IMG/VR virus record: IMGVR_UViG_3300045988_078497
Span: 1 to 59,644 of that record
Strand: one strand, 5' to 3'
DNA from: a virus
DNA length: 59,644 bases
How positions within the stretch are numbered: the stretch's first letter is position 1; each line of letters starts with the position of its first letter. Below, piece after piece: positions 1,783 through 54,778 of the stretch. The notes beneath the pieces were generated by a model, which searched no databases, was not told where the DNA came from, and saw nothing but the letters and a program-made list of their open reading frames with translations. A program made the position numbers and the translations under genes.

Positions 1783-1792
1783 ATCTTCACCT

Positions 1793-2236
1793 CTAATTGA
1801 ATGGTAACTCTTCCATGTTATCTGGAATCGTCATGAAGTCATTTGCAGAACTTACAGGTGCCGGAGATGGCTGTGGCTGCTGTACTGGCGAATAACCAGA
1901 ATTGTTAGTAGATTCTGCTCTACTTTCACAAAATTCATGCTGTTCTACAACCACATCGGTCGTATACACCTTGTTTCCGTCTCTGTTCGTGTAGCTGCCA
2001 GTCTGAATGTGCCCTGTAATTGCAATCTTCATACCTTTTCTCAGATATTTTTCGGCAAATTCGCCCTGTTTTCCAAATGCTTTGCATTTAATAAAATCAG
2101 CCGATGGTTCTCCATCTCTTTTAAACATTCGGTCTACTGCCAGGCTGTAACTGGCAATAGCCATCGGATTTTCACCCTGTGAATATCTCACTTCTGGATC
2201 GCGTGTGAGTCGTCCGATCATTATCACTTTATTCAT
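1793..2236 (-). CDS. ssb: Single-stranded DNA-binding protein
   Basis: MNKVIMIGRLTRDPEVRY OB-fold N-terminus, low-complexity linker, acidic tail ...DNMEELPFN. Confidence 0.85.
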   Translation of the reverse strand: MNKVIMIGRLTRDPEVRYSQGENPMAIASYSLAVDRMFKRDGEPSADFIKCKAFGKQGEFAEKYLRKGMKIAITGHIQTGSYTNRDGNKVYTTDVVVEQHEFCESRAESTNNSGYSPVQQPQPSPAPVSSANDFMTIPDNMEELPFN

Positions 2237-2469
2237 GTCATACCTCTTTTCCTTTTAGTTCTCACACAATAGCCATAATCGGCATGGTGAATATTATTCT
2301 TTTCATAAACGGCACGCATAACGCTTTCTATGGTGAAGCAGTCACGCATGTATGCTTCCTGTCTACGCCGTTTAGTTTCATCATTTTGCAGAGTGAATAT
2401 AAAATACTTAACGCATGTAGCATGGCATTCTTGTGTTCTATCTCTGCAATTTTTGCATTCGTTGTACAT
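2233..2469 (-). CDS. Hypothetical Cys-rich protein (start moved to ATG 2469 with AAAGGTGAT RBS)
   Basis: MYNECKNCRDRTQECHATC...; longer track ORF would overlap upstream gene. Confidence 0.5.
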   Translation of the reverse strand: MYNECKNCRDRTQECHATCVKYFIFTLQNDETKRRRQEAYMRDCFTIESVMRAVYEKNNIHHADYGYCVRTKRKRGMT

Positions 2470-2480
2470 ATTAATCACCT

Positions 2481-3227
2481 TTAAAATGGTGCAACATTTG
2501 GATTGCGTAGTTCCCATTCTTTGTATGGCTCTGCAACGTCCACATTTGACCGTATAGCAACTTTTTTCATTTGTTCGATAAAGTTATACTTATCTGCATT
2601 TTCTTCCGATAAATGGAACATGATTACGTTCTTGACATCGTCTGGTGAATGATTTGTTTCAACAAATTTACAAGCTGTATCAATGCTCATATGACCTCTG
2701 AGAACATGGCTTGCTTTTGCCGGATTGTTCATATCAACCATATTTTTGTCGTAGTCAACACCAAGTAAAATATGGTTTAAATCATCAAATCTCCATTTAA
2801 CAAATTCAGTGTCCGTCACATACAGAAGTTTTCCCATTTCTGGATGCGATATAACATATCCATAGCAAGGGCATTCACTTCCGTCTGCGTTTGTGTGCGT
2901 CCATTTTCCATCTTTCGTAGTAAGTTCAAATGCAATCACTCGAAATCTTGTATGGTCGAAATAGAGCCTGACAAGTGAATATTCGTCATTGGACAAGTAT
3001 GGTGTTGCTACTTTTATTCCGATTTTTCTTAAATCGTAAACAGATTTGCTATGATCTCCATGCCGATGAGTGACTATGCACCCAACCACATTTTTAATAT
3101 TCCAATCCAACCCTTTTTTGATTTCAGAAATCGGAACACCACAATCAAGGATAAGTGTTTCACCATTGCTTGCTGTGAGTAAATGGCAGTTTCCAGAACT
3201 TCCAGTTCCTATCGTTCTCAAAAACAT
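2481..3227 (-). CDS. Metallo-beta-lactamase-fold hydrolase/nuclease
   Basis: VTHRHGDHSKS (HxHxDH) motif near N-terminus; sits in recombination module. Confidence 0.75.
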   Translation of the reverse strand: MFLRTIGTGSSGNCHLLTASNGETLILDCGVPISEIKKGLDWNIKNVVGCIVTHRHGDHSKSVYDLRKIGIKVATPYLSNDEYSLVRLYFDHTRFRVIAFELTTKDGKWTHTNADGSECPCYGYVISHPEMGKLLYVTDTEFVKWRFDDLNHILLGVDYDKNMVDMNNPAKASHVLRGHMSIDTACKFVETNHSPDDVKNVIMFHLSEENADKYNFIEQMKKVAIRSNVDVAEPYKEWELRNPNVAPF

Positions 3228-3237
3228 CTACACCACC

Positions 3238-3441
3238 TCACTTTTCTTTGCATAATTCAATAAAATCTGCTTTGCTCTTTTCGTGCAGTTTCTTCATGAC
3301 AGATTTCTGAGCCAATTCGTGTGTATAAACAGGTCTGCCAAGAAGTTTTTGCATGTATTTATACACCGCATCTCTTTCATCACCACTTGTCATACAGTAG
3401 CCTGTGTAAGTCTCAACGATTACACGCTCTTCCAGTGTCAT
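3238..3441 (-). CDS. Hypothetical protein (67 aa)
   Basis: ORF track, tight packing with neighbours. Confidence 0.45.
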   Translation of the reverse strand: MTLEERVIVETYTGYCMTSGDERDAVYKYMQKLLGRPVYTHELAQKSVMKKLHEKSKADFIELCKEK

Positions 3442-3794
3442 TCAACCACATATATTTCATCATCCTGTGGAAATCGAAAAACTTCCATATTTATGTATTT
3501 TTTAAGAATGTTTTTGAACTCTTCTGGCTCTAACGATTCTTCCATATGCTTGCAAGTGCCACTTGCAAGAGCTTTTATAATTTCAATTCTCGCATATTGC
3601 TCTCTCAGCATTTCCATAGCCTTAATTGCTTTTTTTGTGGTTGAATATTCGGCAATTTTTTCTTCTTCCTTAAGACAAGAATTTCGGCAACAAATAAGTG
3701 TGCGTTTAGGTTCTACATATCCTACACAAAATACTGATAATGAACTGTTTTCATAAGGAATATCTATCGTTCCATCCTGTGAAATTACTCTCAT
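3438..3794 (-). CDS. Hypothetical protein (118 aa; start at ATG 3794 after AGGAGA RBS)
   Basis: MRVISQDGTIDIPYENS...; the longer track ORF overlaps the recT 3' end. Confidence 0.5.
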   Translation of the reverse strand: MRVISQDGTIDIPYENSSLSVFCVGYVEPKRTLICCRNSCLKEEEKIAEYSTTKKAIKAMEMLREQYARIEIIKALASGTCKHMEESLEPEEFKNILKKYINMEVFRFPQDDEIYVVE

Positions 3795-3804
3795 ACTCAA
3801 TCTC

Positions 3805-4581
3805 CTATTCTGCCTGCATGAATGGTGGCAATGTGCTGTCTGCCTTTTTTTCGGTTGCTTCTGCGGCTGTTGTGTCAACTACATCTGCTTTATATTCCGC
3901 AAATTCAACGCTGTTTGCATTTTCTGAGATGTCGTTCTGTACCTGTTCTTGTAATTCATCCATAGAAGAATACTCTTTAAAATCGTTGTCCTGCATTTCT
4001 TCTCTTGTGTACAATCCCATCGTCAGTTCCGGGCAATTAAGGCTTGAGAAGAATGATGCAGCTCTGTATCTAAGCATAAGTTGTGGCATTGTTTTCCACT
4101 TGCTACCGTTTTTGCCAAGCCAACCCTCCGCTTTTGCCATATCCATGTCAACGGTCATTCCCTCTACTTTTCTGCCGTTTTTCGTAGTCCAGGCAAGGCA
4201 AGAGTACGGCTTCCCAGAGTTGTCTTTCTTTTCCTCGAACTGCAATTCCATGTCGAATTTTCCAGAATTATTAATTGCTGCAATTAGAAATTTTGAACTC
4301 CATGACGGTCTACCTTGAATCACATAAAGATTCTGCATAACCATCAAAGGACTTACTTTAAGTCTCTGTGCCTGTTCAATGGCGATCAAACAGTTTGCAT
4401 CATTTTTCTGAAATGTGGATGGAACAATCGTTGAACTTGAAAGTGCTTTCGCCATCTGCATCGCCATGATAAAATTGTCTGATGTTCCGAATATGCCAAG
4501 GCTGTAATCGGTTACTTTGTTATTGTGTGCTGCTACTTCTTTTTTTTCTTCATTTACTTCTACTGCTGTGTTCTCTGCCAT
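3805..4581 (-). CDS. recT: RecT-family single-strand annealing recombinase
   Basis: IAIEQAQRLKVSPLMVMQNLYVIQGRPSWSSKFLIAAIN resembles the RecT core. Confidence 0.75.
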   Translation of the reverse strand: MAENTAVEVNEEKKEVAAHNNKVTDYSLGIFGTSDNFIMAMQMAKALSSSTIVPSTFQKNDANCLIAIEQAQRLKVSPLMVMQNLYVIQGRPSWSSKFLIAAINNSGKFDMELQFEEKKDNSGKPYSCLAWTTKNGRKVEGMTVDMDMAKAEGWLGKNGSKWKTMPQLMLRYRAASFFSSLNCPELTMGLYTREEMQDNDFKEYSSMDELQEQVQNDISENANSVEFAEYKADVVDTTAAEATEKKADSTLPPFMQAE

Positions 4582-5105
4582 TATTTCATACCTCCGATTG
4601 TGATGTTAATTAATAACTGAAATGCTTCATTTTCTGTAAATCCTGCATCAACAAAAGATTTATAAAGTCTGTATATTTCTTTTGCTGTATCATTAATGCT
4701 GTTATCTGCTTTTGGCTCTGAATTGGTTAATCTTTCAAATGCCAATCTGGCACCAATGTTGAAATCAAATTTATCTTCCGGATTACAACGTGCAATGGCT
4801 TTCTTTCCTGTCGATTTATCAAGTGCAATCACCTGTCTATCTTTTTTGTAAATAACGATGGTTTCTGGTGCTATCTTTTCAATATTAGCCTTGTCCACAT
4901 ATAAGCACTGTTTGCCAAAAAGATGCGTTCCATCAATATCCTTGTCGTACACAGTTCCATTACCGCCATCATGGAAGTCATCAAATTTTACTAAACAGTC
5001 AGTTTTATATTCGAATATGACGGTGCCAGGTTTACCCTTAATATCGTATGTTGTAAAAAAATCGTCTTTAACTTTCACTCTGTCTCCGATTTTAAATTTG
5101 CTCAT
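4581..5105 (-). CDS. Hypothetical protein (174 aa), start overlaps RT 3' end
   Basis: ATG 5105 preceded by AAGGAGG; MSKFKIGDRVKVKDD...; track version 4581..5237 has an implausible N-terminus inside the RT gene. Confidence 0.6.
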   Translation of the reverse strand: MSKFKIGDRVKVKDDFFTTYDIKGKPGTVIFEYKTDCLVKFDDFHDGGNGTVYDKDIDGTHLFGKQCLYVDKANIEKIAPETIVIYKKDRQVIALDKSTGKKAIARCNPEDKFDFNIGARLAFERLTNSEPKADNSINDTAKEIYRLYKSFVDAGFTENEAFQLLINITIGGMK

Positions 5106-6168
5106 GTTTGAGTACCTCCTTAACATATAAATCCATTGAATGACATAATTTAATGCAATTACCATGCATTGCATGATTTTTCCAAGCATTATATTTTTCA
5201 TAAAATTTTTTCTCTGACATTTTGTCAGAATTGACAAGTTTCGCCCAAACTCTAATCTTTTTTCGTATTCTTCTTTTGTTTACTCCATTCAATTTTCTTA
5301 TGTGTTTTCCGTCTTTTGTTATGTAATGATGAAAACCTGTAAATAACAGTCCGTTTTTAAATGGAATTATTTGTGTCTTACCGTTAAGCGATAAACAAAG
5401 GCTATTCACGAATTGTTTTATACATTCAAGACACCACTTTAAATATTCCTTATCGTGATGAATTAAATAGAAATCATCCATGTATCTTCCATAAAAATTT
5501 ATTCCAAGCTCTCCGGTCACAAAGTGATCTAATCCATTCAGAATCAGCAATGCGTATGCCTGTGCAGCTTGATTCCCTAGTGGAAGTCCAGGACCATTTG
5601 TGCTGTCAATCAGCAAATGGTTCAACCATTGCGTATAATCATCTGGGAAATAATAATCAACAATATCCTTTAAAATATCGTGATCTATTTGATAGAAAAA
5701 TTTTGTGATATCGCATTTTAAAATCCAACCATCAATTCCATGTTGATTATAAAAATCCAACATTTGCTCTTTTAAACAATCAATTCCAAAATGTGTACCT
5801 TTTCCTATCTGCCCGGCATAATTAGTTCGAATAAACTCACTTTCCAATCTCGGATGCAATACATTGTCGCATAAGCAATGCTGTACTACTTTATCTTTGA
5901 ACGAACAGGATTTAATCACTCTTTCTTTAGGCTCATATACCTTAAATTCATTGTACGGATTCATCCGGTAAGTCTGATTTTCAAGCTGCTCTTTCAAAAT
6001 GTGTAATCCCTCAAGGTTCATTATTTGAAATTTAGCACTGCTGCCATTAAATCCTTTGCCTGCTTTAGCTTTCTTATAAGCTCTATACAGGTTTTCAAAA
6101 TCACATATAACATCTTTATCCATTGTAAAAAATCCTTTGTATTTATCCTTTTCGGAATGGTCATGCAC
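5092..6168 (-). CDS. DGR reverse transcriptase
   Basis: FYGRYMDDFYLIH (YMDD), LPLGNQAAQAYA motif-4-like region, adjacent TR; alternative start at MDKDVICDFENLYRAY (6123). Confidence 0.9.
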   Translation of the reverse strand: MHDHSEKDKYKGFFTMDKDVICDFENLYRAYKKAKAGKGFNGSSAKFQIMNLEGLHILKEQLENQTYRMNPYNEFKVYEPKERVIKSCSFKDKVVQHCLCDNVLHPRLESEFIRTNYAGQIGKGTHFGIDCLKEQMLDFYNQHGIDGWILKCDITKFFYQIDHDILKDIVDYYFPDDYTQWLNHLLIDSTNGPGLPLGNQAAQAYALLILNGLDHFVTGELGINFYGRYMDDFYLIHHDKEYLKWCLECIKQFVNSLCLSLNGKTQIIPFKNGLLFTGFHHYITKDGKHIRKLNGVNKRRIRKKIRVWAKLVNSDKMSEKKFYEKYNAWKNHAMHGNCIKLCHSMDLYVKEVLKHEQI

Positions 6169-10977: not shown

Positions 10978-11703
10978 CTACACAAGCCGTATCTGAGCGT
11001 TGGCATCCCTGATCTGTTCTTCCAACACTTTCGGAACCTCATAATCGTTGATGAGATTATGAGCATCATCAATCCATTTTCTCTTGATTGATTTATAAGA
11101 TGATACGCAACCGTACTCACGTTTTAACTGGCGGTATATATCTTTAAACACTGAACTTCTAATACTGCCATCTCTGTATGCTTCACTTGTCTTTCCACCA
11201 AGCACATTTACAACCTTGCGATTAACGTGATTTTTGATATCGTCAATCTCACATCCGTACAGTGGCATGTCATTTTTTAAACTGTCGATTTCTTCCTCAA
11301 CGTTTGTAACACGCTCATTCAGTTCCGTATTTCCAAGTGCCAGAAGTTTAATCTGCTCCGCTGTTGACATCGGTTTGCGATAACCACCTGTTTTGCGGAT
11401 GGTTGGGAGAACTTCTGATGTTACCCAGTGTTTGAATCTTTTTGCTGATTCAAGCTTGCTGCCGAAGATTAAAGCGTATAAGCCAGATTCGTTGATAATA
11501 TACATCTGTCTGTTCTGACCTGAGTCGGCAAAACACCGAGTCAGCTTATCTTCGTCTGCAACGTGTTTCTTTAGTGCATCTGATGTATCTTTATATCCAA
11601 GCGATACAGCCACATCTTTTCCAACGAAATATATTTCGTTATCAATAGTTACCGTTCGGATTTCACCGAACTCTTCTGAATTAAAAATCTGTAATTCGTT
11701 CAT
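10978..11703 (-). CDS. Anti-repressor, BRO-N domain family
   Basis: MNELQIFNSEEFGEIRTVTIDNEIYFVGKDVAVSLGYKDTSDALKKHV is a typical Bro-N N-terminus. Confidence 0.75.
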   Translation of the reverse strand: MNELQIFNSEEFGEIRTVTIDNEIYFVGKDVAVSLGYKDTSDALKKHVADEDKLTRCFADSGQNRQMYIINESGLYALIFGSKLESAKRFKHWVTSEVLPTIRKTGGYRKPMSTAEQIKLLALGNTELNERVTNVEEEIDSLKNDMPLYGCEIDDIKNHVNRKVVNVLGGKTSEAYRDGSIRSSVFKDIYRQLKREYGCVSSYKSIKRKWIDDAHNLINDYEVPKVLEEQIRDANAQIRLV

Positions 11704-14930: not shown

Positions 14931-15911
14931 TTAGTCAATTTGAACTTTTCCATTTACGACCTTGCAGGTCGCATCTCCGGTGTAATTAAAATCAACAGCC
15001 CCGTTGAGCACAAGCCAGATTCCCTGGTCGTTCTGAACCAATCCAGTATAGCTAAAATCAACAGCTCCATTCTTCAGATAGAACCATCCATTCTCGTTCT
15101 TCGCCAGACCGTTAAAATCAAAATTTACTTTTCCGTTTTCGATTCTCCACCAGCCGTTTTCATTCTGAGAAATTCCGGTGTAGCTAAAATCAACAGCTCC
15201 ATTGGTTACCTTCCACCAGCCATACTCATTCTGAACTACGGTATTTGCCCCGAAATCAACCGCCCCGTTCCGGACATACCACCAGCCATTCACGTTTTGC
15301 GCAAGCCCGGTGTAGTCTGCCGCTACATGGTTGTTTCTGTAATAGTACCAGTTTCCGTCAGCTGCTGCCTGATTGGAAAGACCGTCCGGAATACTTGGTT
15401 GCGTCAGTCTGCCGTGAAACTCCTGCTCCCAGAGTGTATCATCCACCCAGTAGGCCGGGCATGGCTTTCCGTTGACGTCGTAGTGTCGGATTACACGATC
15501 AACCGTGACGTTGTATTTGCTCATCAGATCTTTTACGAGATCCAGAGCATTATTTATCGTTGCCGCTGTTGCTTTTACGACTCCGTTTTTGACTGTATCA
15601 CACAGCTCCACGTTCAGCGTGTTTGCATTTTTCGCAATACCATACAAACGTCCACCACCGTTGTTATATTTACGTCCGCCAACAGACCAAGCAATACGAT
15701 CATCGGGAACCGAATGCACTACAGTCGTATCATCGACAAAATAGTGCGCTGATGCCTTCCTGTTTTCACCTTGAAAATATTTACCGTTATTTTCTGCTGT
15801 ATCTCCATCATTACTGGTAAAATGCACTGTGATATATCCGATACTGCACAATGCTCTATACGATCCGTAGTTTGTTTTAGAAGCCCACATTTCCTTTAAT
15901 ACATAAGACAT
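14931..15911 (-). CDS. Endolysin: N-acetylmuramoyl-L-alanine amidase (Amidase_2/PGRP-like) + C-terminal cell-wall-binding repeats
   Basis: N-terminal YITVHFTSNDGDTAENN...SAHYFVDD..; C-terminal tandem GWWYVRNGAVDF-type repeats. Confidence 0.8.
   Translation of the reverse strand: MSYVLKEMWASKTNYGSYRALCSIGYITVHFTSNDGDTAENNGKYFQGENRKASAHYFVDDTTVVHSVPDDRIAWSVGGRKYNNGGGRLYGIAKNANTLNVELCDTVKNGVVKATAATINNALDLVKDLMSKYNVTVDRVIRHYDVNGKPCPAYWVDDTLWEQEFHGRLTQPSIPDGLSNQAAADGNWYYYRNNHVAADYTGLAQNVNGWWYVRNGAVDFGANTVVQNEYGWWKVTNGAVDFSYTGISQNENGWWRIENGKVNFDFNGLAKNENGWFYLKNGAVDFSYTGLVQNDQGIWLVLNGAVDFNYTGDATCKVVNGKVQID
14934..15353 (-). repeat. About six tandem ~21-aa (63-nt) coding repeats, CW_binding_1-like (NGWWxxxNGAVDFxYTG)
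   Basis: Repeats visible in translation: NGWWYVRNGAVDF / YGWWKVTNGAVDF / NGWWRIENGKVNF / NGWFYLKNGAVDF / QGIWLVLNGAVDF. Confidence 0.75.
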
Positions 15912-41033: not shown

Positions 41034-41123
41034 TGGAAAAGGTTGGAATTGAACCAACAATGTTTACCACATGGGAACGGTTTTACAGACCGCCATAGCA
41101 CAACCAATAGCTACCTCTTTTCC
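41034..41123 (-). tRNA. tRNA-Tyr (anticodon GUA), type II with long variable arm
   Basis: Manual cloverleaf: acceptor GGAAAAG/CTTTTCC, AC stem GCGGT/ACCGT, loop CTGTAAA, variable stem ATGT/ACAT, T arm GTTGG-TTCAATT-CCAAC; no encoded CCA. Confidence 0.85.
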
Positions 41124-41520
41124 GTGTGCATTTCTGCAAGAGCAGCATTTTTTTAATTCAAGTGGGATTCTGCCACCAACACTCTATCCGGTCGCTATCC
41201 GGAATATTTGAATGTAAGGACTTGCACCTTATTAGAACCCATCTTCCAAGAATCGAACTTGTATTTCTTGTATATCGAAATGTCACCATACATCTGGAAT
41301 CGAACCAGACTAAGCACTTTGCCATTCAACACCTACGGTTGCCACCAACGTCTGACATTCATCTACCAGCATTACCACTTGCAAGGCTTTGAACATTGGT
41401 CAATCTGAATGGGTGGTGTAGCGTCTCCAACCCATATCGGAATTTCTTTTGTCGCTACATTTGATACAATTCCATTCGGACTTCGTATTTTTACCGCTTA
41501 CGGCTTCTACCGTAAGTTAG

Positions 41521-41610
41521 CGCAGATAATAGGACTTGAACCTATACACCGTTTTATCGGCTACTGGCTGTTTAGCAAACAGTTTCCTTTCCAGTTAGGA
41601 TTATATCTGC
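41521..41610 (-). tRNA. tRNA-Ser (anticodon GCU), type II
   Basis: Acceptor GCAGATA/TATCTGC, 3-bp D stem, loop TTGCTAA, long variable arm, T arm ATAGG-TTCAAGT-CCTAT, G discriminator. Confidence 0.85.
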
Positions 41611-41614
41611 AAAA

Positions 41615-41688
41615 TCGGAATGGTAGGATTCGAACCTACGACCAACTGTGTATAAGACAGGTGCGCTAACCAACTGCGCTACATTCCG
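41615..41688 (-). tRNA. tRNA-Ile (anticodon UAU as read; identity tentative)
   Basis: Acceptor CGGAATG/CATTCCG, D arm GCGC-AGTTGGTTA-GCGC, loop CTTATAC, T arm GTAGG-TTCGAAT-CCTAC. Confidence 0.75.
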
Positions 41689-41761
41689 ATACCGGGCAAA
41701 TTTATTTTCGCCCGGTACAACACATATCAACAGAAAGGATTGAACTCTATGAAAAGTCCAA

Positions 41762-41832
41762 TGGCTGCAACAGGACTTGAACCTGTTCCTCCAAATGTGC
41801 GCGCTGTGTGCTTTCCGTTACACCATGCAGCC
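41762..41832 (-). pseudogene. Degenerate tRNA-like element (good acceptor and T arm, no canonical anticodon stem; loop would read GCA)
   Basis: Acceptor GGCTGCA/TGCAGCC, T arm ACAGG-TTCAAGT-CCTGT, but the region CACAGCGCGCACATTTGG gives at most 3 pairs. Confidence 0.5.
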
Positions 41833-42011
41833 TTGTTTGCATACATTTCAGTGCGGTATGCAAGCGCACGATAAGAGGTGTAAAAATAGGGATGCCACTC
41901 ATGCCATCTGTCCGATGGCTAATCCCCACACAACATTTGACCGCTATGTAGGGCATATTTTCTATAACAAGGAGAAATGAATGTATGGGATTTTTGGATA
42001 TACATCCCAAA

Positions 42012-42082
42012 CTAGGGTAATCGGAATCGAACCGATGACCGCGGAGTCAAAATCCGTTGCGCTACCACTGCGCCATACCCCA
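42012..42082 (-). tRNA. tRNA-Gln (anticodon UUG)
   Basis: Acceptor TGGGGTA/TACCCTA with U1-A72 and G73 as in bacterial tRNA-Gln, D arm GCGC-AGTGGTA-GCGC, loop TTTTGAC, T arm ATCGG-TTCGATT-CCGAT. Confidence 0.85.
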
Positions 42083-47997: not shown

Positions 47998-48151
47998 AAA
48001 ATTTTGCTAGACCATTTTTGACAGATTCCATCGTAAACAAAATTGCTTTGCTTGTGTATGTGCTTACACTCAGTTCTTCCAGTAGCCGCTCCCTTGTCAT
48101 TCCCGGATTTGTCTTGTGTATATATTCCAATAGTTCATCAATTTTATTCAT
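47996..48151 (-). CDS. Small HTH-like protein (51 aa)
   Basis: TAATG coupling to ImmA-like stop; MNKIDELLEYIHKTNPGMTRERLLEELSVSTYTSKAILFTMESVKNGLAKF. Confidence 0.45.
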   Translation of the reverse strand: MNKIDELLEYIHKTNPGMTRERLLEELSVSTYTSKAILFTMESVKNGLAKF

Positions 48152-48471
48152 TATGCAACTCCTATCTGCATATTTGCCATTAATTCATCAAGAAGATATA
48201 TCAAGTCCGTACCGTACAGACTTATCCAGTCCGCAAGGTACTCTTCCTGTTCAATAGGCATGGATATGTTATGTGAAAAGCAGAAACAATGGCATAGTTC
48301 GTGAGCCAATATTTTGCGTAAATAGCCATTTTTAGGAATATTTGATAAATACACCGTCTTGTCGTTCCAATCGCTCACAGCAAGGCTATGAGAACCGTCA
48401 GAACGCATTAAATGTTCACTGTTCCCATTCACAAATAATATTCTCCAAAGTATACCGTTAATCTCAAACAT
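48151..48471 (-). CDS. ImmA/IrrE-like small zinc metallopeptidase (HExxH)
   Basis: YLRKILAHELCHCF HEXXH motif; GGAGGT RBS before ATG 48471. Confidence 0.6.
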   Translation of the reverse strand: MFEINGILWRILFVNGNSEHLMRSDGSHSLAVSDWNDKTVYLSNIPKNGYLRKILAHELCHCFCFSHNISMPIEQEEYLADWISLYGTDLIYLLDELMANMQIGVA

Positions 48472-48530
48472 AAGTACCTCCAAAAAAAGAAACCACCAAC
48501 CGAATACTGGTTAATGGTTTCTAATTATTG

Positions 48531-49199
48531 TTACTGGTATAATTTTTCTACTGTTCTAAGATATGTGTCTGCCAGTTCTGCCAATTCTGGGAAATAGCTA
48601 ACAATATCAAGCGCATACACTGGCTTTTTGCCAAGTTCCGCTTCGTAAATTTCATTTGTGGCTTCTAAATCGTATTCTTCGCCAAGTCGCAAAAGAATAT
48701 TGTGGTTTAGCGTCTCCACCGGCACATCCTCCTGTTTGCATATCCATTTGATTCTACGTCTATTTCTCATGTACCAGTTTGGATTTTTCGGAACCGGTGT
48801 ATTGCTTGTGTGATACTTTTGCCTTACTGCCGGAACGGATGCGGTTGTTCTAACGTTGAAATACGCATTTACAAGCTGTCTCTGCACTTGCCATGATAAA
48901 TCATCCGTAAAAGACTTTACTATCATCAGATAACCGCTTTCTGTGATCAAGTAAGTTATAAGACTTGGATTTCCCTTTATTTTTTCTTTAGGGGAATATC
49001 GTTCCCCCAATTCTTTTCTTGTTATTTCAAAATAATCCTCACCTAATACAAAATGCTTTTTATGCTTTTGGAAAGATTTCTTTGCAGTATCTGTTTTCTT
49101 ACCATGCACCTTGTCTATATCTTTCAGTGTAACAACTCTTTGCCCGTTGTACTCACGAATTTGCATTTCTGCATCTTCAATCGTAATCATATCATTCAT
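48531..49199 (-). CDS. ORF6N/KilA-N-like anti-repressor
   Basis: IREYNGQRVVTLKDIDKVHGKKTDTAKKSFQKHKKHFVLGEDYFEI typical ORF6N pattern; start at ATG 49199 after GGGGGGA. Confidence 0.6.
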   Translation of the reverse strand: MNDMITIEDAEMQIREYNGQRVVTLKDIDKVHGKKTDTAKKSFQKHKKHFVLGEDYFEITRKELGERYSPKEKIKGNPSLITYLITESGYLMIVKSFTDDLSWQVQRQLVNAYFNVRTTASVPAVRQKYHTSNTPVPKNPNWYMRNRRRIKWICKQEDVPVETLNHNILLRLGEEYDLEATNEIYEAELGKKPVYALDIVSYFPELAELADTYLRTVEKLYQ

Positions 49200-49215
49200 T
49201 GTATTATCCCCCCAA

Positions 49216-49461
49216 TCAAACAGCAGGTGTATACGTTCCATTCATTATGCCAATAGCCAACTTCATTCCTGTAACAGCATAAAAATAGTTGCTTTCTGCT
49301 GCACAGTCATTAAATATTTCTTCTAACTCAGAATAAACTTTATCACTAACAATGTCTTTGAGTTTATTCATAAATGGCTTGAAAACTTCCAAGTACTTAT
49401 CTCCCTGCTCAGCATTACCCATAATCTGATTAGTACATACAATTTCTAAAAAATTATCCAT
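49216..49461 (-). CDS. Hypothetical protein (81 aa)
   Basis: ORF track. Confidence 0.5.
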   Translation of the reverse strand: MDNFLEIVCTNQIMGNAEQGDKYLEVFKPFMNKLKDIVSDKVYSELEEIFNDCAAESNYFYAVTGMKLAIGIMNGTYTPAV

Positions 49462-49576
49462 AATATTTTACCTCACTTTAGAATTTTTCTTGAAATGAGA
49501 TAATCTCTATGATAAAATATTTCACAGAGATTTATCTCACTTTTAGAGTAGTCACTTACCGGCAAGTAGAGTTTGA

Positions 49577-49750
49577 CTACTCTTTTTCTTTTTCCAAAAG
49601 AAGATTTATTCCTCTCCTTATAGCTTCGCCTTTGGTAATGTTGTATTTTTCACAATAAAATTTCAACTTAATTTCCGTTTTTTCATCAAGGCGAATACTA
49701 AACCTGCTTAGTTTTGGATTGTCAACTTTTGGGCGACCTATTGGTGACAT
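49577..49750 (-). CDS. Ribbon-helix-helix (CopG-like) protein (57 aa)
   Basis: MSPIGRPKVDNPKLSRFSIRLDEKTEIKLKFYCEKYNITKGEAIRRGINLLLEKEKE; below the track cutoff. Confidence 0.55.
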   Translation of the reverse strand: MSPIGRPKVDNPKLSRFSIRLDEKTEIKLKFYCEKYNITKGEAIRRGINLLLEKEKE

Positions 49751-49887
49751 TTGATCACTTCCTTTCTTGTCACACCTTTATTATAGTTTGTGTCACACCA
49801 AAAGTCAAGAGTTATTTTCAAATAAAAACCATTAACCAATATTCAGTTTTCAAAGTTCAGAAATAGGGGCATTTCTGCCCCTACCAT

Positions 49888-50541
49888 TTACATCTTAGAC
49901 ACCAGTGTAGACATCTTTGCTTTAATCATAGACCGTTCTTCCGGTGTCATATCGCCAAGCATGTCTGTTACGTCCTCGCTCAAGTCTTTCATGTATTTTT
50001 CCAGATCACGCATCTTTGCTTCTTTGTCATGTTGTGTATTTGCCCGGTGAAGCTCTTTGCTCTCCATGTATGTCTTACGGCTCATGCCACTTCTGCCCTC
50101 TCTGGAATCACGCATAGCACTGTCAGAAATGCGTGATGGTTCAGAATAGTACATTCTACCTATTCTGTCTCTATCCATGTCCCGTCCGTCAGTCCAATCA
50201 TGGTACATTTCCGGAGTCATGTGCCAGTATGGCCTTTCCTCATATCCTCTGCGCGTTCCTCTTCCTTTAGGTGCGAAACGTCCGTTTGCATATCGGTAAT
50301 TGTCGTAAAATCTCCTACCACCATCGCCGTATCTATCGAACATTTCCATGATCTCATCTGTTTCAGATTCATCCATTGCTTTGGTTAGTGTTCTGTAATA
50401 CATGGCTTCCGCAAGGTCTTTGAGCATGTCTGTTACCTGCCCCATCTCTACCGGATCAACATTCTCTATCCCTTTGTTGAACTCACTTTCAGCACACTCT
50501 GCAATTTTCTCAATCATGCAATGCATTCTTTTAATATCCAT
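49888..50541 (-). CDS. Cargo protein, R/D/E/Y/M-rich (217 aa), unknown function
   Basis: ...RYGDGGRRFYDNYRYANGRFAPKGRGTRRGYEERPYWHMTPEMYHDW...GRMYYSEPS...; no family recognised. Confidence 0.55.
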   Translation of the reverse strand: MDIKRMHCMIEKIAECAESEFNKGIENVDPVEMGQVTDMLKDLAEAMYYRTLTKAMDESETDEIMEMFDRYGDGGRRFYDNYRYANGRFAPKGRGTRRGYEERPYWHMTPEMYHDWTDGRDMDRDRIGRMYYSEPSRISDSAMRDSREGRSGMSRKTYMESKELHRANTQHDKEAKMRDLEKYMKDLSEDVTDMLGDMTPEERSMIKAKMSTLVSKM

Positions 50542-50545
50542 AACT

Positions 50546-50968
50546 CTACGCCTCCCTTGTTACAACTAAGTTAGCGTTAGCTACGTCAATAGCAACACCA
50601 CTGGTGTTCTCAACGGCGATGTTTACGCAACAGCCTTTCGGAACATCTACATAGATTCCAGTCGAAACATTATTGAACTGCGACACTGCTGCCGGTGTAG
50701 AAATCATCTGTGAAGAAAGAACCGGTTCACCACTAATTGCGATTGCCAGAGAAATTTCTCCGGCCGTACCGCCAGTAGGAACGGCAATATTTGCAGAAAA
50801 ATCTACAAAATATCTCGCCCGGCACTGATTTGTGATCCCTCTAAGCGTAACAATTCCAGAACCCTCTCTGTGTTGAATACAGTTAGAGCCTCTAACTGCT
50901 GTGTTTGTAAAAACAACATTTCCGTTAGCAGCCACTTCCTGTGACGCAACAGCTAAATATTCTGCCAT
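50546..50968 (-). CDS. Cargo protein, beta-rich, BclA-C/C1q-TNF-like jelly-roll suspected (140 aa)
   Basis: ...RYFVDFSANIAVPTGGTAGEISLAIAISGEPVLSSQM...VNIAVENTSGVAIDVANANLVVTRE alternation resembles exosporium BclA C-terminal domains. Confidence 0.5.
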   Translation of the reverse strand: MAEYLAVASQEVAANGNVVFTNTAVRGSNCIQHREGSGIVTLRGITNQCRARYFVDFSANIAVPTGGTAGEISLAIAISGEPVLSSQMISTPAAVSQFNNVSTGIYVDVPKGCCVNIAVENTSGVAIDVANANLVVTREA

Positions 50969-51092
50969 ATAATTTACCTCCTAAATCGAATTTAGGGGCA
51001 AACAACAGTCTGCCCCTTATCACTGTAATACTGCTAAAGCAGACATAACCTTGGATAAAACTTGGTTAAGTTACTCTTATTCTGTTGTGCTT

Positions 51093-51878
51093 TTAGCATC
51101 CGCAACCAGTATTGCATCCGCAAGCATATCCATACGGAGATGGAACGGTGTATGCCGGAATCGGAGCTGGGTTAACAGCATTGATAATCTGTTGTGTCTG
51201 AGCTGCCATCTGAGTTGTAAGCAGTGCGCTCTGGCGATCCTGTGAAGCTGCTCTGCGAAGATCATTATTTTCTGCCTGTAAGGAAGAAATTTTTTCGTTG
51301 CAGAGATAATCGAGGATTGCTCTAGTCCCTGCGTTCTGGCTCTCAATAATATCTCTTGTATTTGTGTTCATGGTGTTCTGCAACGCACATGTGTTTGTTG
51401 CCATGTTGTAATTTACACCTTGAATAGCTTCTCTCGTCTCACAGCAGCAATTAGCTAACTGTGACTGTAACGCATTTGTGTTCTGCATATTAGCAACAGT
51501 ATCAGCATTAATAGCCTGCTGAATGCCGTAACCGGTCTGCATAATATTTGTGTTAATACCATTAAAGCCGGTAAGCATACTGTTGTTCATTGCATAAAAA
51601 CCGTCGCAAAGTCCGTTAGAAATGCCATCTAACTTGCTGATAACTGCGGAATTATCAAATCCTCTCTGTATATCAGCCTGTGTAGCTGCTGTAGAAACAT
51701 AACCACCGCCATTATTACAGCCAAATCCACCTAATCCGTTGTTTCCCCATCCAAAAAGCAACGCGAACACGACTATAATCCATAACCATCCCCCGTCGCC
51801 CCATGCGCCACCGTCAGAATAACCGCCGGTAGCCGGCATAACAGGCATGGTAAAAGGCGTATTGTTTGAGTTAAACAT
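51093..51878 (-). CDS. Cargo membrane protein, Gly-rich N-terminus, N/Q/T-rich core, Cys-rich C-terminus (261 aa)
   Basis: GGAGGTAAAACT-ATG; GGYSDGGAWGDGGWLWIIVVFALLFGWGNNGLGGFGCNNGGGY ... LANCCCETREA ... YGYACGCNTGCGC. Confidence 0.55.
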   Translation of the reverse strand: MFNSNNTPFTMPVMPATGGYSDGGAWGDGGWLWIIVVFALLFGWGNNGLGGFGCNNGGGYVSTAATQADIQRGFDNSAVISKLDGISNGLCDGFYAMNNSMLTGFNGINTNIMQTGYGIQQAINADTVANMQNTNALQSQLANCCCETREAIQGVNYNMATNTCALQNTMNTNTRDIIESQNAGTRAILDYLCNEKISSLQAENNDLRRAASQDRQSALLTTQMAAQTQQIINAVNPAPIPAYTVPSPYGYACGCNTGCGC

Positions 51879-51948
51879 AGTTTTACCTCCGAAAATTTTA
51901 TTCATAAAGATGTCACCCAGGAATTGTATACAAACATCTATTATGCCA

Positions 51949-52182
51949 TTAATTATTAAACTTGCTTTTGATCTGATTTATTACATCTTCTGCATTCAGA
52001 CCTTTTTCCTTACACAAATTTCGTGCCATTTGCTCAATTCCTTGCATATCGCCTTTTTGAGCCATTTCTATTGTATTCTTCATTAAGGGATTTCTCATAA
52101 TCTGATTATTTCCCATCATCTGTTGTAAAAATTGCTGTGGGTTCCCGTTTTTCATCATCTGGAAAATATTTAATGGATTCAT
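51949..52182 (-). CDS. Cargo small M/Q/N-rich protein (77 aa)
   Basis: MNPLNIFQMMKNGNPQQFLQQMMGNNQIMRNPLMKNTIEMAQKGDMQGIEQMARN. Confidence 0.5.
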   Translation of the reverse strand: MNPLNIFQMMKNGNPQQFLQQMMGNNQIMRNPLMKNTIEMAQKGDMQGIEQMARNLCKEKGLNAEDVINQIKSKFNN

Positions 52183-52236
52183 TCTGCACCATCCTTTTGA
52201 ATTAACATACCAACTACATATCAACTAATACACAAA

Positions 52237-52746
52237 CTAAGTTGTGCTATTCTTTGATTTAGTTGTTCTATTAGTTGGTGTATCGCAAATTTTTTGCTCC
52301 AACTTGCAAATCTCACTTACAAGTTCATTTAGTTTTTCATCAAATCCGCTTCTGACATCTTCTAGTGCTTCTAAAACTGTTTTTTCTTTATCGTTTGATA
52401 AGTTGTTAGCATGTTCATTTAAAGCTGGCTTAAACACGACAGTACGGATTGTACCGTCAGCATTCCATTGTTTTGCATAAATTTCCGACATGTCCTGTTT
52501 TGGAAATATTGCAACACTTCCGTCCATCGGAACATCGTTTGCATTAATCACATCAACCGATGGAACAATTTTTCCATTTATGAAAGTCGATTGTGACTGC
52601 TGCACCGGTTGCATTTGCTGTTGAAACTGCTGCTGTGGTTCGAATCTCTGCTGTTGGTATTGGTTTCCACCATAATTCCCATATTGGAAATATGGCTGTA
52701 TCTGCGGATTGTATATGCTATTCGGATACTGGTTGTTCATCTGCAT
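52237..52746 (-). CDS. Cargo protein with Q/N/Y-rich prion-like N-terminus (169 aa)
   Basis: MQMNNQYPNSIYNPQIQPYFQYGNYGGNQYQQQRFEPQQQFQQQMQPVQQSQS then a globular domain and a C-terminal helix. Confidence 0.55.
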   Translation of the reverse strand: MQMNNQYPNSIYNPQIQPYFQYGNYGGNQYQQQRFEPQQQFQQQMQPVQQSQSTFINGKIVPSVDVINANDVPMDGSVAIFPKQDMSEIYAKQWNADGTIRTVVFKPALNEHANNLSNDKEKTVLEALEDVRSGFDEKLNELVSEICKLEQKICDTPTNRTTKSKNSTT

Positions 52747-52943
52747 TCTGCTTTTCCCCCTCTAAAACTTCCTCGATCGCATGTATCACAGAGGATTGTG
52801 TCTGCAAATCAAGCCTTTGCATCTCTTTTCTGTTAAAAATTTTCTCTAAAATTTCATCTGAAAACACATTGTCACCCTCTTTCTAAATAAATTTTTGCAT
52901 AAAAAGTAAGCAGATACCATATCAGTATCGGCTCAAAAAAGTA

Positions 52944-53144
52944 TCACATCACTTTTCTTATTTTCTCATTCATAGTTTTTGCTATACGTTTCACTGTAGC
53001 AATACTCACGTTCATTTCCTCAGCGCACATCTCGTAGCTGCACTCTTTGTTTCGAAGCATAAACAATGTGTGCTGCTGATCTGTAAAGTTAGCTTTATCT
53101 AAAATGTAATTAATTTCATCTTTGGTAAAATCCGGCACTTTTAT
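52944..53144 (-). CDS. Small sigma-70 region-4-like HTH regulator (66 aa)
   Basis: GGAGGT RBS; MIKVPDFTKDEINYILDKANFTDQQHTLFMLRNKECSYEMCAEEMNVSIATVKRIAKTMNEKI. Confidence 0.55.
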   Translation of the reverse strand: MKVPDFTKDEINYILDKANFTDQQHTLFMLRNKECSYEMCAEEMNVSIATVKRIAKTMNEKIRKVM

Positions 53145-53295
53145 CATGGCAATACCTCCAGAATATTTTTTTGAGAAATTGGCAAAAAGCACCCCTTATA
53201 TTATATGCTCAGACATAAAAAAAGATGCCTAACGGCACCAACTTTTTTCAACTGTATTAAGGCTATTTTCTTATGCTATTTTTTACACCAATTTT

Positions 53296-53344
53296 GTACC
53301 AATTTTTGTACCAATTTTTAAAAACGTACCAATTTTGTACCAAT
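53296..53344. promoter_or_regulatory. attP arm: four GTACCAAT repeats (putative integrase arm-type sites)
   Basis: Copies at 53296, 53308, 53326, 53337; a variant ACACCAAT lies just upstream. Confidence 0.7.
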
Positions 53345-53558
53345 CAAAAGTTGAATTTAAACATTTTTGTAGGTTTTTGTGAAGCTGTTAAATTTGCTTT
53401 ATTTCCAGTATTTATGCTGTTTGTAGACTTATGTAGACTTTTAAACAGAAAGTCGTTTTTGCGTTATTTCATAAGGAAATGATCTGTATTATTGCTTCTC
53501 TTATGTGCTTCAAACCATTGATTTTACTGGGTTTCGTGCTATTTAGTTATATAGTTTT

Positions 53559-53577
53559 GTACCAATTCCGTACCAAT
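53559..53577. promoter_or_regulatory. attP arm: two more GTACCAAT repeats abutting the integrase stop
   Basis: Copies at 53559 and 53570. Confidence 0.65.
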
Positions 53578-54704
53578 TACACCACTTTTAGGTAATTTTC
53601 CAGCTTCAAAATTTCCTTTTCGTTTGCTTCTTCTGTTGTATGAACATAAAGGTTCATTGTTATTGTTATGCTAGAATGTCCGAGGATGGTCTGTAATGTT
53701 TTTGGTCTTATTCCTGCTTCAATACACCTAGTAGCATAAGTGTGTCTCAGAGAATGCATCGAAAAAACATCCACATTATATTTTTTACAATAAGATTTCA
53801 ATAACGTATTAAGTGAACTTCTAGTATTCAAAACACCATGCGTATTCAAAAAAATATTATTTTTATATTTTAAACTAATTACTTTTAATTTTGCATTTTT
53901 TTCTTTTTGTGCATTAAGCAGTTTCTTTGCTTCTTCTGTCAGTGGAACAGTGCGTATACTTGTTTTCGATTTTGGCGTTCCGACTTTTGTTTTTTTGTCT
54001 GTGTCTTGAAATAATGTTTTGTTTACGCATATTTTATTCTTTTCAAAATCAACATCATCCCACGTCAGCGCAAGAATTTCACTGACTCTCATACCGGTTT
54101 GTAACGCAAATGCAAAAAAATTATAATTTGCAGTATTTTTCGATCTCTCAAGAAAATCTTTCTGCTCCTGCACCGTCAAAAACCTTATTTTCACTTCCTC
54201 TTTCACCGGAATTTTTACATTCCTTGTTACCGGATTGAATGATATAAAGGAGTTTTCAACGGCGGATTCAAAAAAACCATGCATAACTTCACGAACTCCT
54301 TGTATAGTGTTCTTTTTCATCCCGTTTTCCATCATTACTTCAAACACTTCGCTACAATGAATCGGTTTGACATCTTTAATCAACATATCCCCCATTACCG
54401 GCTTTATGTGTCTTAACCATCTTGTTAAATTTGCACTCTGCGTGTTTGGCTTCCAGAACGGTTTTTTTAATTTTTCGTACCAGTAATTAAACCACGATTC
54501 AACAGTGGGATTATCTCCACGCAGAACATTACCATGCTCTTTTTCAAACTGCATGTCTGCCACCCACTTCCTACAATCCTGTAGTTTTTTAAAATTTTTA
54601 GAAATCCTTTTTCCATTGCGATCAGTTACTCTACCCATGTAAAATCCATCGGTTCTTTGAGAAATACCTATTCCAAGTTCTTTTCCTTTTAGGCTTTTTC
54701 CCAT
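53577..54704 (-). CDS. int: Tyrosine integrase
   Basis: C-terminal catalytic region ...MRVSEILALTWDDVDF...HSLRHTYATRCIEAGI...LGHSSITITMNLYVH (R..HxxR..Y); start at ATG 54704 or GTG 54713. Confidence 0.9.
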   Translation of the reverse strand: MGKSLKGKELGIGISQRTDGFYMGRVTDRNGKRISKNFKKLQDCRKWVADMQFEKEHGNVLRGDNPTVESWFNYWYEKLKKPFWKPNTQSANLTRWLRHIKPVMGDMLIKDVKPIHCSEVFEVMMENGMKKNTIQGVREVMHGFFESAVENSFISFNPVTRNVKIPVKEEVKIRFLTVQEQKDFLERSKNTANYNFFAFALQTGMRVSEILALTWDDVDFEKNKICVNKTLFQDTDKKTKVGTPKSKTSIRTVPLTEEAKKLLNAQKEKNAKLKVISLKYKNNIFLNTHGVLNTRSSLNTLLKSYCKKYNVDVFSMHSLRHTYATRCIEAGIRPKTLQTILGHSSITITMNLYVHTTEEANEKEILKLENYLKVV

Positions 54705-54778
54705 TATTCGCACCCCTTTCTTTAAAAGAAAAAGCCTTAATACAGTAATTTCATATTACTACATAAGGCTTTAAAAGT

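Follow-up and report, generated by a model that had tools for sequence, protein, structure and literature searches.

The cassette and its boundaries

We analyzed a stretch of viral DNA of 59,644 nucleotides (IMG/VR record IMGVR_UViG_3300045988_078497, positions 1 to 59,644, hereafter the window). It holds the whole genome, about 59.6 kb, of a temperate siphophage whose host is a member of the Lachnospiraceae, and the minus strand carries nearly all genes. Our subject is a cassette of five genes, called here gA to gE, that follows a small helix-turn-helix (HTH) gene beside the phage attachment site (attP). Read along the minus strand from the tyrosine integrase gene (53577-54713), the order is integrase, AATTGGTRY repeats, a hairpin, the HTH gene, a small gene that we call g0, gA, gB, gC, gD, gE, a second hairpin, and a promoter. 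An original prediction, made from the sequence by itself, had described five compositionally extreme proteins directly after attP and had proposed that they are cargo of the lysogen, possibly forming spore-coat-like or other self-assembling material. All five open reading frames (ORFs) are indeed present on the minus strand with compositions as described, and gene callers applied to related contigs arrive at these same lengths for the HTH protein and for gA to gE (67, 169, 77, 261, 140 and 217 aa).

The attP region (53285-53578, minus strand) is marked by arm-type AATTGGTRY repeats, four at 53285-53334 and two at 53559-53578, and six of the eight matches to this motif in the window fall inside it. 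The crossover lies near window position 53486, where homology to an integrated prophage of Eubacterium ramulus (L173) starts, with host DNA alongside. Host genes stand immediately outside that prophage and the integrase is at its far end; because the homology begins at 53486, the HTH gene and the cassette are the first unit inside the prophage in the lysogen. The repeat cluster and the prophage junction thus verify that the cassette directly follows attP, and, as the junction adjoins the HTH gene, its description as att-adjacent cargo is correct for the window phage. The E. ramulus insertion is downstream of infC-rpmI-rplT, within or beside a gene of the Mn-catalase family (PF05067), which we take to include CotJC. 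A truncated Mn-catalase ORF of 128 aa was left beside the prophage end after insertion (L173 7029-7415).

Sequence patterns suggest that the cassette is insulated on both sides. A terminator-like hairpin followed by a T-run (53224-53239, minus strand), which was found by a consensus scan and by reading of the sequence and is a pattern match only, parts the integrase and attP from the cassette. Directly 3' of the gE stop codon we read a GC-rich hairpin, AGGGGCA-GAAA-TGCCCCT (49865-49882, minus strand), which the consensus scan missed because its T-run is short; the transcript of the cassette probably ends here. Beyond it, a strong predicted sigma-70-like promoter (TTGACT-17-TATAAT, 49780-49808, minus strand), matching the consensus at 11 of 12 positions, would drive the next unit, which begins with a ribbon-helix-helix (RHH) repressor-like gene, and as a predicted element it marks the downstream boundary of the cassette. 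In the window, and at the pattern level only, the cassette therefore shows the features by which a moron is recognized: an att-adjacent position with a promoter and a terminator of its own.

The HTH gene (52944-53147, minus strand) encodes a protein that resembles region 4 of sigma-70 and has an ATG start behind GGAGG. The sigma-like HTH of the original prediction is thus present, with a length of 67 rather than 66 aa, and the match to region 4 is weak: Sigma70_r4_2 (E 2.4e-4), phrog_1190 'sigma factor' (E 1.2e-6) and TIGR02937 (E 3.7e-5), with scores under the curated cut-offs for Sigma70_r4_2 (21.1 bits against 25.7) and TIGR02937 (23.4 against 42.9). We presume that it is the regulator of the cassette; as a small HTH-only regulator it presumably resembles GerE. 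Between the HTH gene and gA, and overlooked in the original prediction, is g0 (52718-52867, minus strand), a conserved acidic protein of 49 aa whose ORF begins with GTG and runs over the start of gA. It is an annotated coding sequence in Dulem virus 39, is called as a gene in L169 and L170, and has homologs in 19 related loci; a family search with g0 returned no match.

The cassette proteins

We compared the compositions of gA to gE with the window's own proteome (K 8.3%, Q 3.7%, M 2.7%, C 1.4%) and found them far from this background. Searches of Pfam, NCBIfam and PADLOC recognized none of the five proteins, and PHROGs returned only families of 'unknown function', so that the statement that no named virion, lysis or replication protein is encoded here holds in these four resources. 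No enzyme domain was detected in gA to gE.

For gD (50546-50968, minus strand; 140 aa), structure prediction shows an all-beta jelly roll with the BclA-C/C1q/TNF fold. Its AlphaFold model (pLDDT 78.6, pTM 0.75, from a 58-sequence alignment) finds its best Foldseek match in the PDB in F-BclA (9h38, E 1.5e-6), and BclA itself (1wck/3twi) superposes with a TM score of 0.71-0.74. BxpB, ExsFA, EDA, 4-1BBL and C1q come after these; TM scores span 0.6-0.76 for 9h38, 1wck, 3twi, 8d02, 1rj7 and C1q taken together, and the matches also include the binding domain of the cyanophage A-1(L) short tail fiber and a fibritin. Against the BFVD viral structures, gD matches gut-phage proteins, among them a 'BclA protein' and C1q-domain proteins. 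The resemblance to these jelly rolls had been predicted from the strand pattern, and the two structural methods confirm it. At the sequence level gD matches phrog_20016 ('unknown function', E 3.3e-57), and we found no Pfam match to BclA_C, C1q or TNF at E values up to 1 and no PDB sequence or profile match. By analogy with its structural relatives, we presume that gD forms trimers and serves as a 'head'.

Some phages have another protein in the gD slot, the Cys-rich beta protein gD2, which is about 130 aa long and contains about ten cysteines. A relationship of gD2 to gD was considered and rejected, as hhalign shows none, and PDB sequence and profile searches with gD2 gave nothing significant.

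The largest protein is gC (51093-51878, minus strand; 261 aa), which has 11 cysteines in total and the C-terminal end YGYACGCNTGCGC. A short acidic N-terminal tail precedes a single hydrophobic helix flanked by Gly and Trp, predicted to be a transmembrane (TM) helix; then come a helical region of about 200 aa that is rich in N, Q, A, T and G and contains the motif CCC, a PxPIPAY tail motif, and the Cys-rich end. The hydrophobic helix is a feature of the whole family, with the best 15-residue window averaging a Kyte-Doolittle value of about 2.0. The domain that follows it is poor in charge (K 1.6%, E 2.8%) and rich in N (11.7%), Q (8.7%) and C (4.6%) as well as A and G. Of the 112 full-length representatives examined, 106 contain CCC, 77 have a Cys-rich tail and 47 carry the motif PxP[IVL]P[AS][YF]. 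The family comprises 2,269 representatives at 50% identity and corresponds to phrog_16490 (E 2.5e-56, 'unknown function').

No Pfam match and no significant PDB sequence or profile match was found for gC, and its AlphaFold model is weak (pLDDT 48, from a 40-sequence alignment), showing the TM helix and three long helices. A 95-member gC profile searched against the PDB gave sub-threshold matches only, many of them to residues 5-88 of influenza HA2 (E 0.05-0.5). We treat these as a lead and not as evidence of homology, since they may reflect composition alone. Profile matches of the HA2 type are probably the reason why gC is labeled 'spike protein' or 'glycoprotein' in crAss-like phages. One protein cluster, P0410, is a hybrid of the beta domain of gA and the C-terminal domain of gC without the TM helix; it may be a deletion artifact.

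Immediately upstream of gC there is always gB (51949-52182, minus strand), a helical protein of 77 aa rich in Asn (17%), Met (13%) and Gln (13%). A second lineage, described below, has an analogous protein, gB2, and two independent protein clusters (P0142 and P0159) join gB2 in frame to the N-terminal end of gC; from these fusions we infer that gB acts on the hydrophobic N-terminal region of gC, as a putative helper of that region. Met-rich domains that bind hydrophobic helices may offer a parallel. Comparisons by hhalign of gB with gB2, and of gB with the N-terminal extensions of Bacteroidota and archaeal gC, were not significant, and only a short KG[ILM]DP-like motif is common to them; a fusion of gB to gC in Bacteroides phages, which we had considered, was dropped for this reason.

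The two remaining proteins, gA and gE, combine conserved segments with low-complexity ones. In gA (52237-52746, minus strand; 169 aa), the N-terminus is variable and rich in Q, N, Y and P (19 Q, 6 N and 6 Y in residues 1-52); next comes a conserved domain, beta-rich and about 55 aa long, then a short coiled coil, and lastly a basic tail rich in S, T and K, as judged from a 32-sequence alignment (A8). It matches phrog_21718 (E 4.4e-11, 'unknown function') and is homologous to gA2 of the second lineage (hhalign probability 99.3%), while a PDB profile search gave coiled-coil noise only. The prion-like N-terminus is missing from the Bacteroidota versions. In gE (49888-50541, minus strand; 217 aa; M, R and E 11% each, D 10%), conserved helical segments at both ends enclose a disordered center that is rich in R, D, E, Y, G, M and S and carries an RDSxGRY-type motif (alignment A10). 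It is homologous to gE2 of the second lineage (phrog_28802; hhalign probability 99.7%, E 4.9e-27). A relationship to the DUF7841 proteins, an alternative type that we call gE3, was rejected because hhalign shows none.

Conservation and mobility of the cassette

To survey the cassette we assembled 80 IMG/VR loci retrieved with gC and 80 loci from species-representative genomes, about 160 in all. The order gA-gB-gC-(gD or gD2)-gE recurs across them, and the co-occurrence analysis that the original prediction had called for thus shows the five genes to be one co-conserved unit. The full order of HTH, gA, gB, gC, gD and gE is kept in all 17 viral loci of class 1, which are relatives of the window phage, and in about 60 loci of class 2, a second and very abundant lineage. 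In class 1 the cassette always comes after the integrase, be it of the tyrosine type or a swapped-in large serine recombinase, whereas in class 2 the six genes have a MuF-like minor capsid gene on one side and the genes for the scaffold and the major capsid protein on the other. In the 80 genome loci, where gC identity ranges from 31 to 99%, gA-gB-gC-(gD or gD2)-gE is the dominant arrangement. The cassette is immediately preceded by an HTH homolog in 72 viral loci and in about 30, or roughly a third, of the 80 genome loci.

We also sampled the class-2 lineage by capsid similarity instead of by gC, and found the whole cassette in 59 of 61 loci; capsid identity was at least 96% throughout, and this retention shows maintenance, not dispensability. 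More than 7,500 clusters at 90% identity were retrieved with gD, and more than 7,500 likewise with gC; some of them contain more than 1,000 sequences.

The position of the cassette varies from phage to phage: at the prophage end by attL, after an integrase or serine recombinase, after holin and endolysin genes, or between MuF-like and scaffold genes. Butyrivibrio virus Ceridwen, whose host Butyrivibrio fibrisolvens is not known to form spores, carries the cassette after endolysin and holin-like genes, as does bajarodcaudo virus 5. Only the lytic cycle of Ceridwen has been observed, and its authors annotated no integrase (PMC7372960). The gD of this phage is 49.7% identical to that of the window. 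In Clostridium perfringens phage XP41-N3 the cassette follows an antirepressor gene a few kb downstream of the lysis genes, and gC is present in five further cultured C. perfringens phages.

A related gene set extends beyond these phages. Among crAss-like Suoliviridae it comes right after holin and endolysin genes in cr4_1 and cr1_1, and after a gene for an FtsL/LysB-like TM protein in cr52_1; it is also present in Bacteroides uniformis phage C3_41T2LP. Its members are a DUF7841 protein whose tail is rich in R, D, E and Y, gC, a beta protein (130-180 aa) with a weak likeness to gD2, and a gA-like protein, whose coiled coil in Bacteroides matches phrog_473 'virion structural protein' (E 1.4e-8). 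Several crAss-like homologs of the cassette genes (L083, cr52_1, 1751-5640; L167, 4782-5759) have in-frame stops under translation table 11, consistent with stop-codon recoding. Viruses assigned to Methanomassiliicoccales carry gC alone, and their GenBank records cite phrog_16490.

The metagenome-assembled genomes (MAGs) that supplied the genome loci are labeled as Lachnospiraceae, Oscillospiraceae, Collinsella, Bacteroidales, Akkermansia, Phascolarctobacterium, Gastranaerophilales and others. Such host labels are soft, because the binning of phage contigs is imperfect; the breadth across phyla and the restriction to the gut are nonetheless clear, and every locus retrieved comes from an animal-gut sample. 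A search of plasmids for the family found essentially none. One locus, L172, had looked like a chromosomal copy beside host genes; it holds only gC and gE fragments and was set aside as a likely misassembly or remnant.

From these observations we conclude firmly that the cassette is an autonomous, horizontally mobile and stably maintained module whose products are structural in type, and equally firmly that it is independent of sporulation, of lysogeny, of any single virion architecture and of any single cell-wall type. Two parts of the original prediction are accordingly unsupported. The link to spore coat or exosporium is at odds with the presence of the cassette, or of gC, in phages of B. 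fibrisolvens and Bacteroides, in crAss-like phages and in Methanomassiliicoccales viruses. The view of the cassette as specifically lysogenic-conversion cargo does not agree with its presence in lytic-only Ceridwen, in crAss-like phages and in a head-gene module. A non-enzymatic, self-assembling structural system, as had also been suggested, remains the best general description.

A proposed function and its rivals

We tentatively favor the reading, which we consider possible, that the cassette is a portable, self-contained, non-enzymatic operon in which a membrane-anchored gC stalk is combined with an exchangeable gD or gD2 head and three low-complexity helpers. The sigma-region-4-like HTH protein would switch on the operon, which the hairpins would insulate on both sides. 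The gC protein would insert into the cytoplasmic membrane through its single Gly/Trp-flanked helix, and would oligomerize by way of a long N/Q-rich coiled coil locked by the CCC motif and the Cys-rich C-terminal tail. The hydrophobic N-terminal region of gC may be handled or shielded by gB. Trimers of gD would form the exchangeable head, replaced by gD2 in other phages, and gA and gE, both of low complexity, would be adaptors or scaffolds. The site of action would be the membrane or envelope of the cell, infected or lysogenic, whatever the wall type of the host; we favor a membrane site because the cytoplasmic membrane is the only structure common to all of the hosts that a single-pass protein can address. 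The small TM/coiled-coil, papain-like and AgrB-like neighbors of the cassette, and the membrane and surface proteins beside gC in an archaeal virus, all described below, have a cell-envelope flavor that we count in favor of this proposal. As to its biological role, our guess is an envelope remodeling that blocks other phages or assists release.

A number of observations weigh against this proposal. The charges on either side of the TM helix leave the orientation of gC ambiguous, and the P0410 hybrid points to a topology opposite to that suggested by the N-terminal fusions. If the gC domain is outward, as those fusions suggest, it would be in another compartment from gD, gA and gE, which carry no export signal. 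Coiled-coil trimerization and contact between gC and gD are conjecture, the gC model being poor (pLDDT 48), and the tail type of gC does not follow the choice of gD or gD2 as partner, as L001 and L086 have similar tails and different partners. With little charge and much N, Q and T, gC and gD also look like virion fiber proteins, and in two lineages the cassette is inside structural gene blocks. In PADLOC we obtained only weak matches, to a ZorA tail (E 2.5e-4 and 1.9e-3) and a diadenylate cyclase (E 9.2e-3), which we read as coiled-coil noise. Finally, the exclusion systems known to us are single small proteins, not sets of five to seven genes.

Because these weak points concern export, contact, composition and structural blocks, a virion accessory fiber or spike is a serious rival, although on balance we find it unlikely. 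Here gC would be a trimeric coiled-coil fiber, gD or gD2 its exchangeable tip for binding a receptor or glycan, and gA, gB and gE assembly or attachment factors, the whole decorating the head, neck or tail and aiding the phage in sticking to hosts or mucus. Besides the fiber-like composition of gC and gD, the Foldseek matches of gD to a cyanophage tail-fiber domain, phage C1q-domain proteins and fibritin would fit such a tip, and the swapping of beta proteins in one slot resembles the swapping of receptor-binding proteins. The cassette is embedded among structural genes in crAss-like phages and in the L023 lineage, is fixed in the capsid-defined lineage, and includes in Bacteroides a gA-like coiled coil similar to phrog_473; homing endonucleases, which are often near conserved structural genes, occur in or beside it, and all retrieved examples are from gut samples. 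A genuine hydrophobic helix of the kind found in gC would be unusual for a fiber, however, and prion-like and R/D/E/Y-rich disordered proteins are atypical virion parts. Siphophages, crAss-like podophages and archaeal viruses would all need a universal docking site, and in the window the cassette is insulated, has its own regulator, and occupies the end of the prophage, with the tail genes 35 kb away. That gC might instead be a large holin, an antiholin or a spanin-like tether, with the other proteins tuning or completing envelope disruption, is an idea that we rate as distinctly unlikely. In i-spanins and T4 holin T, a TM helix at the N-terminus precedes a Cys-containing coiled coil, a layout to which that of gC, with its helices and conserved cysteines, may be likened. 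The cassette directly follows lysis genes in unrelated phages (cr4_1, cr1_1, cr52_1, Ceridwen and bajarodcaudo virus 5) and is a few kb downstream of them in XP41-N3; endolysin, amidase and holin families are among the upstream neighbors, and small TM/coiled-coil and papain-like proteins are frequent ones. These immediate neighbors are heterogeneous, however, with lysis families in the minority, and temperate siphophages usually accumulate accessory genes just downstream of their lysis genes. No sequence similarity to spanins was detected, no cassette protein has a lipobox, and the hosts are mostly monoderm, so that spanins are unneeded for lack of an outer membrane. In the window the endolysin gene (14931-15911), which is of the normal type, is far from the cassette.

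Two further readings would have the proteins act outside the infected cell or on its spore. We consider it highly improbable that the cassette encodes a weapon or host-directed factor freed at lysis, in which gC would attack membranes, gB would keep its hydrophobic segment soluble, and gD or gD2 would direct it to other bacteria, in the manner of a bacteriocin, or to molecules of the animal host, as a mimic of C1q or TNF. The placement of Met/Gln-rich gB next to the hydrophobic segment, or fused before it, would suit this reading, as would a variable targeting slot, the TNF/C1q fold of gD, the origin of every retrieved example in an animal gut, and the likeness of the Gly/Trp segment and helix of gC to HA2 residues 5-88. 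That likeness is sub-threshold (E 0.05-0.5) and perhaps compositional, though; no immunity gene is evident, the comparisons made did not show a TNF-like nature for gD2 or the Bacteroidota beta proteins, and such a weapon would be without precedent. The least probable of the readings weighed is that of the original prediction, in which a sporulation-expressed lysogenic-conversion cassette would add coat- or exosporium-like material to the spores of the lysogen. The fold of gD is common to BclA, BxpB and ExsFA; gD superposes on the C-terminal domain of BclA, on BxpB, ExsFA and F-BclA with TM scores of 0.67-0.76 and a Foldseek probability of 1.0, and like BxpB and ExsFA it is a stand-alone domain of about 140 aa without a signal peptide. 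The proteins are Cys-rich and lack signal peptides, as coat proteins do, the small HTH-only regulator would parallel GerE (a likeness that we assume), and the cassette is att-adjacent in a prophage that interrupts a gene of the Mn-catalase family PF05067, of which CotJC is presumably a member. Identity to the Bacillus exosporium proteins is only 11-15%, however, and the cassette has no collagen-like stalk, exosporium leader, or ExsY/CotY or Ena partner: Pfam searches of gA to gE, gD2 and the neighbors found no collagen-like, ExsY/CotY or DUF3992 Ena family, and there are no GXX repeats. Moreover, gD is phage-encoded, and many carriers infect hosts that do not sporulate, since the same cassette, or in archaeal viruses gC alone, is found in phages of B. 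fibrisolvens, Bacteroides, crAss-like hosts and archaea. It also occurs inside late gene blocks, and in Ceridwen, which was seen in the lytic cycle only (PMC7372960). Because it is found in Bacteroides and archaeal viruses, the cassette is very unlikely to be a spore-coat system.

Comparison with known systems and significance

Other known systems share single features with the cassette. If gC and gD associate, as our proposal would have it, the combination of N-terminal anchor, stalk and TNF-fold head would be that of the TNF-superfamily ligands; in the cassette, however, stalk and head are two polypeptides, the head has no export signal, and the sequences are unrelated. Class I fusion subunits of the influenza HA2 type resemble gC in having an N-terminal Gly/Trp hydrophobic segment and then long helices with a Cys cluster between them, whereas the HA2 matches are sub-threshold, gC lacks a C-terminal TM anchor, its model is too poor for a comparison of folds, and tailed phages are unenveloped. 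With the superinfection exclusion proteins Sie2009, Ltp and HK97 gp15, the window cassette shares the niche between integrase and repressor, a membrane-anchored component and a transcription unit of its own; these are single small proteins, as opposed to the five to seven genes of the cassette, which also occurs in the late regions of lytic phages. A literature search covering DUF7841, BclA and C1q proteins in gut prophages, and viruses of B. uniformis, C. perfringens and Methanomassiliicoccales found no report on the cassette genes. We place the cassette outside the known kinds of system, as exosporium/Ena, spanin, class I fusion, TNF-ligand, Sie and PADLOC defense systems all fail to account for it.

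A bolder form of our proposal, about which we are more doubtful, is that the cassette is a previously unrecognized portable viral membrane machine, made up of a fusion-protein-like, Cys-knotted stalk, a chaperoned hydrophobic segment and an exchangeable head that is either C1q/TNF-like or Cys-rich. Such a machine would be shared horizontally, in animal guts, among the tailed viruses of Gram-positive and Gram-negative bacteria and of archaea, and would act on the cytoplasmic membrane, which all of these hosts possess, in the blocking of entry, in egress, or in attack on neighboring cells.

The cassette is very common, its genes staying together in thousands of gut viruses; it is found in phages assigned to many gut phyla and in archaeal viruses, yet it is unnamed, and DUF7841, an alternative component, is its only Pfam family. 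Its function would annotate a large slice of the 'dark matter' of the gut virome, and could reveal a phage step that is independent of the host, such as exclusion, egress or the adhesion of particles in the gut. Cultured carriers are at hand in Butyrivibrio phage Ceridwen, six C. perfringens phages, Bacteroides phage C3_41T2LP and an E. ramulus lysogen (assembly GCA_977050415.1).

Neighboring genes and additional observations

Several gene families that are absent from the window accompany the cassette elsewhere. One is a small family, about 125 aa long, in which Cys20, His100 and Asp111 are invariant and would fit a papain-like triad (alignment A9; for example, L023 6241-6624). It occurs in 43 of the 80 genome loci and throughout the class-2 lineage (57 of the viral and phage loci), and in many phages it directly adjoins the cassette on one side or the other; it has no Pfam or PDB match. 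Other neighbors are small TM/coiled-coil proteins, a helical protein of 105 aa and, occasionally, AgrB-like membrane proteins. One protein cluster just upstream of the cassette (L132 4415-4984, L136 4442-5011 and L139 4902-5162) includes AgrB-like multi-pass proteins in L132 and L136 (PF04647, best E 6.8e-6). In an archaeal virus, genes for membrane and surface proteins adjoin gC.

In relatives, homing-endonuclease genes of the HNH and I-HmuI-like types are inserted at the gB-gC or the gD-gE junction, and such genes flank the cassette in crAss-like and Bacteroides phages (L045 7091-7819, minus strand; L032 9597-10409; L083 5778-6356; L084 2880-3500). A small metalloprotease-like HExxH protein of 106 aa, homologous to window 48151-48483, comes directly after gE in L169 and L173 and follows the cassette in most class-1 loci. 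Relative to these two loci, window 48531-49750 (minus strand) is an insertion that consists of the RHH repressor-like gene, an 81-aa ORF and an ORF6N antirepressor (48531-49241). A second anti-repressor (10978-11703, minus strand; phrog_463, E 1.1e-81) is unrelated to the ORF6N protein and far from it.

Elsewhere in the window, the terminase, portal and tail genes are at 16-39 kb and DnaD-like replication genes at 55.9-57.4 kb. A reverse transcriptase (5092-6168, minus strand; phrog_1423, E 1.9e-97) may belong to a diversity-generating retroelement or be of the defense type. Four tRNA genes, for tRNA-Tyr, tRNA-Ser, tRNA-Ile and tRNA-Gln(ttg), lie at 41034-42082 (minus strand). In the unrelated class-2 lineage a tRNA-Gln(ttg), as also carried by the window phage, directly follows the cassette (L023 10412-10495), and may relate to the Gln/Tyr-rich proteins encoded there.

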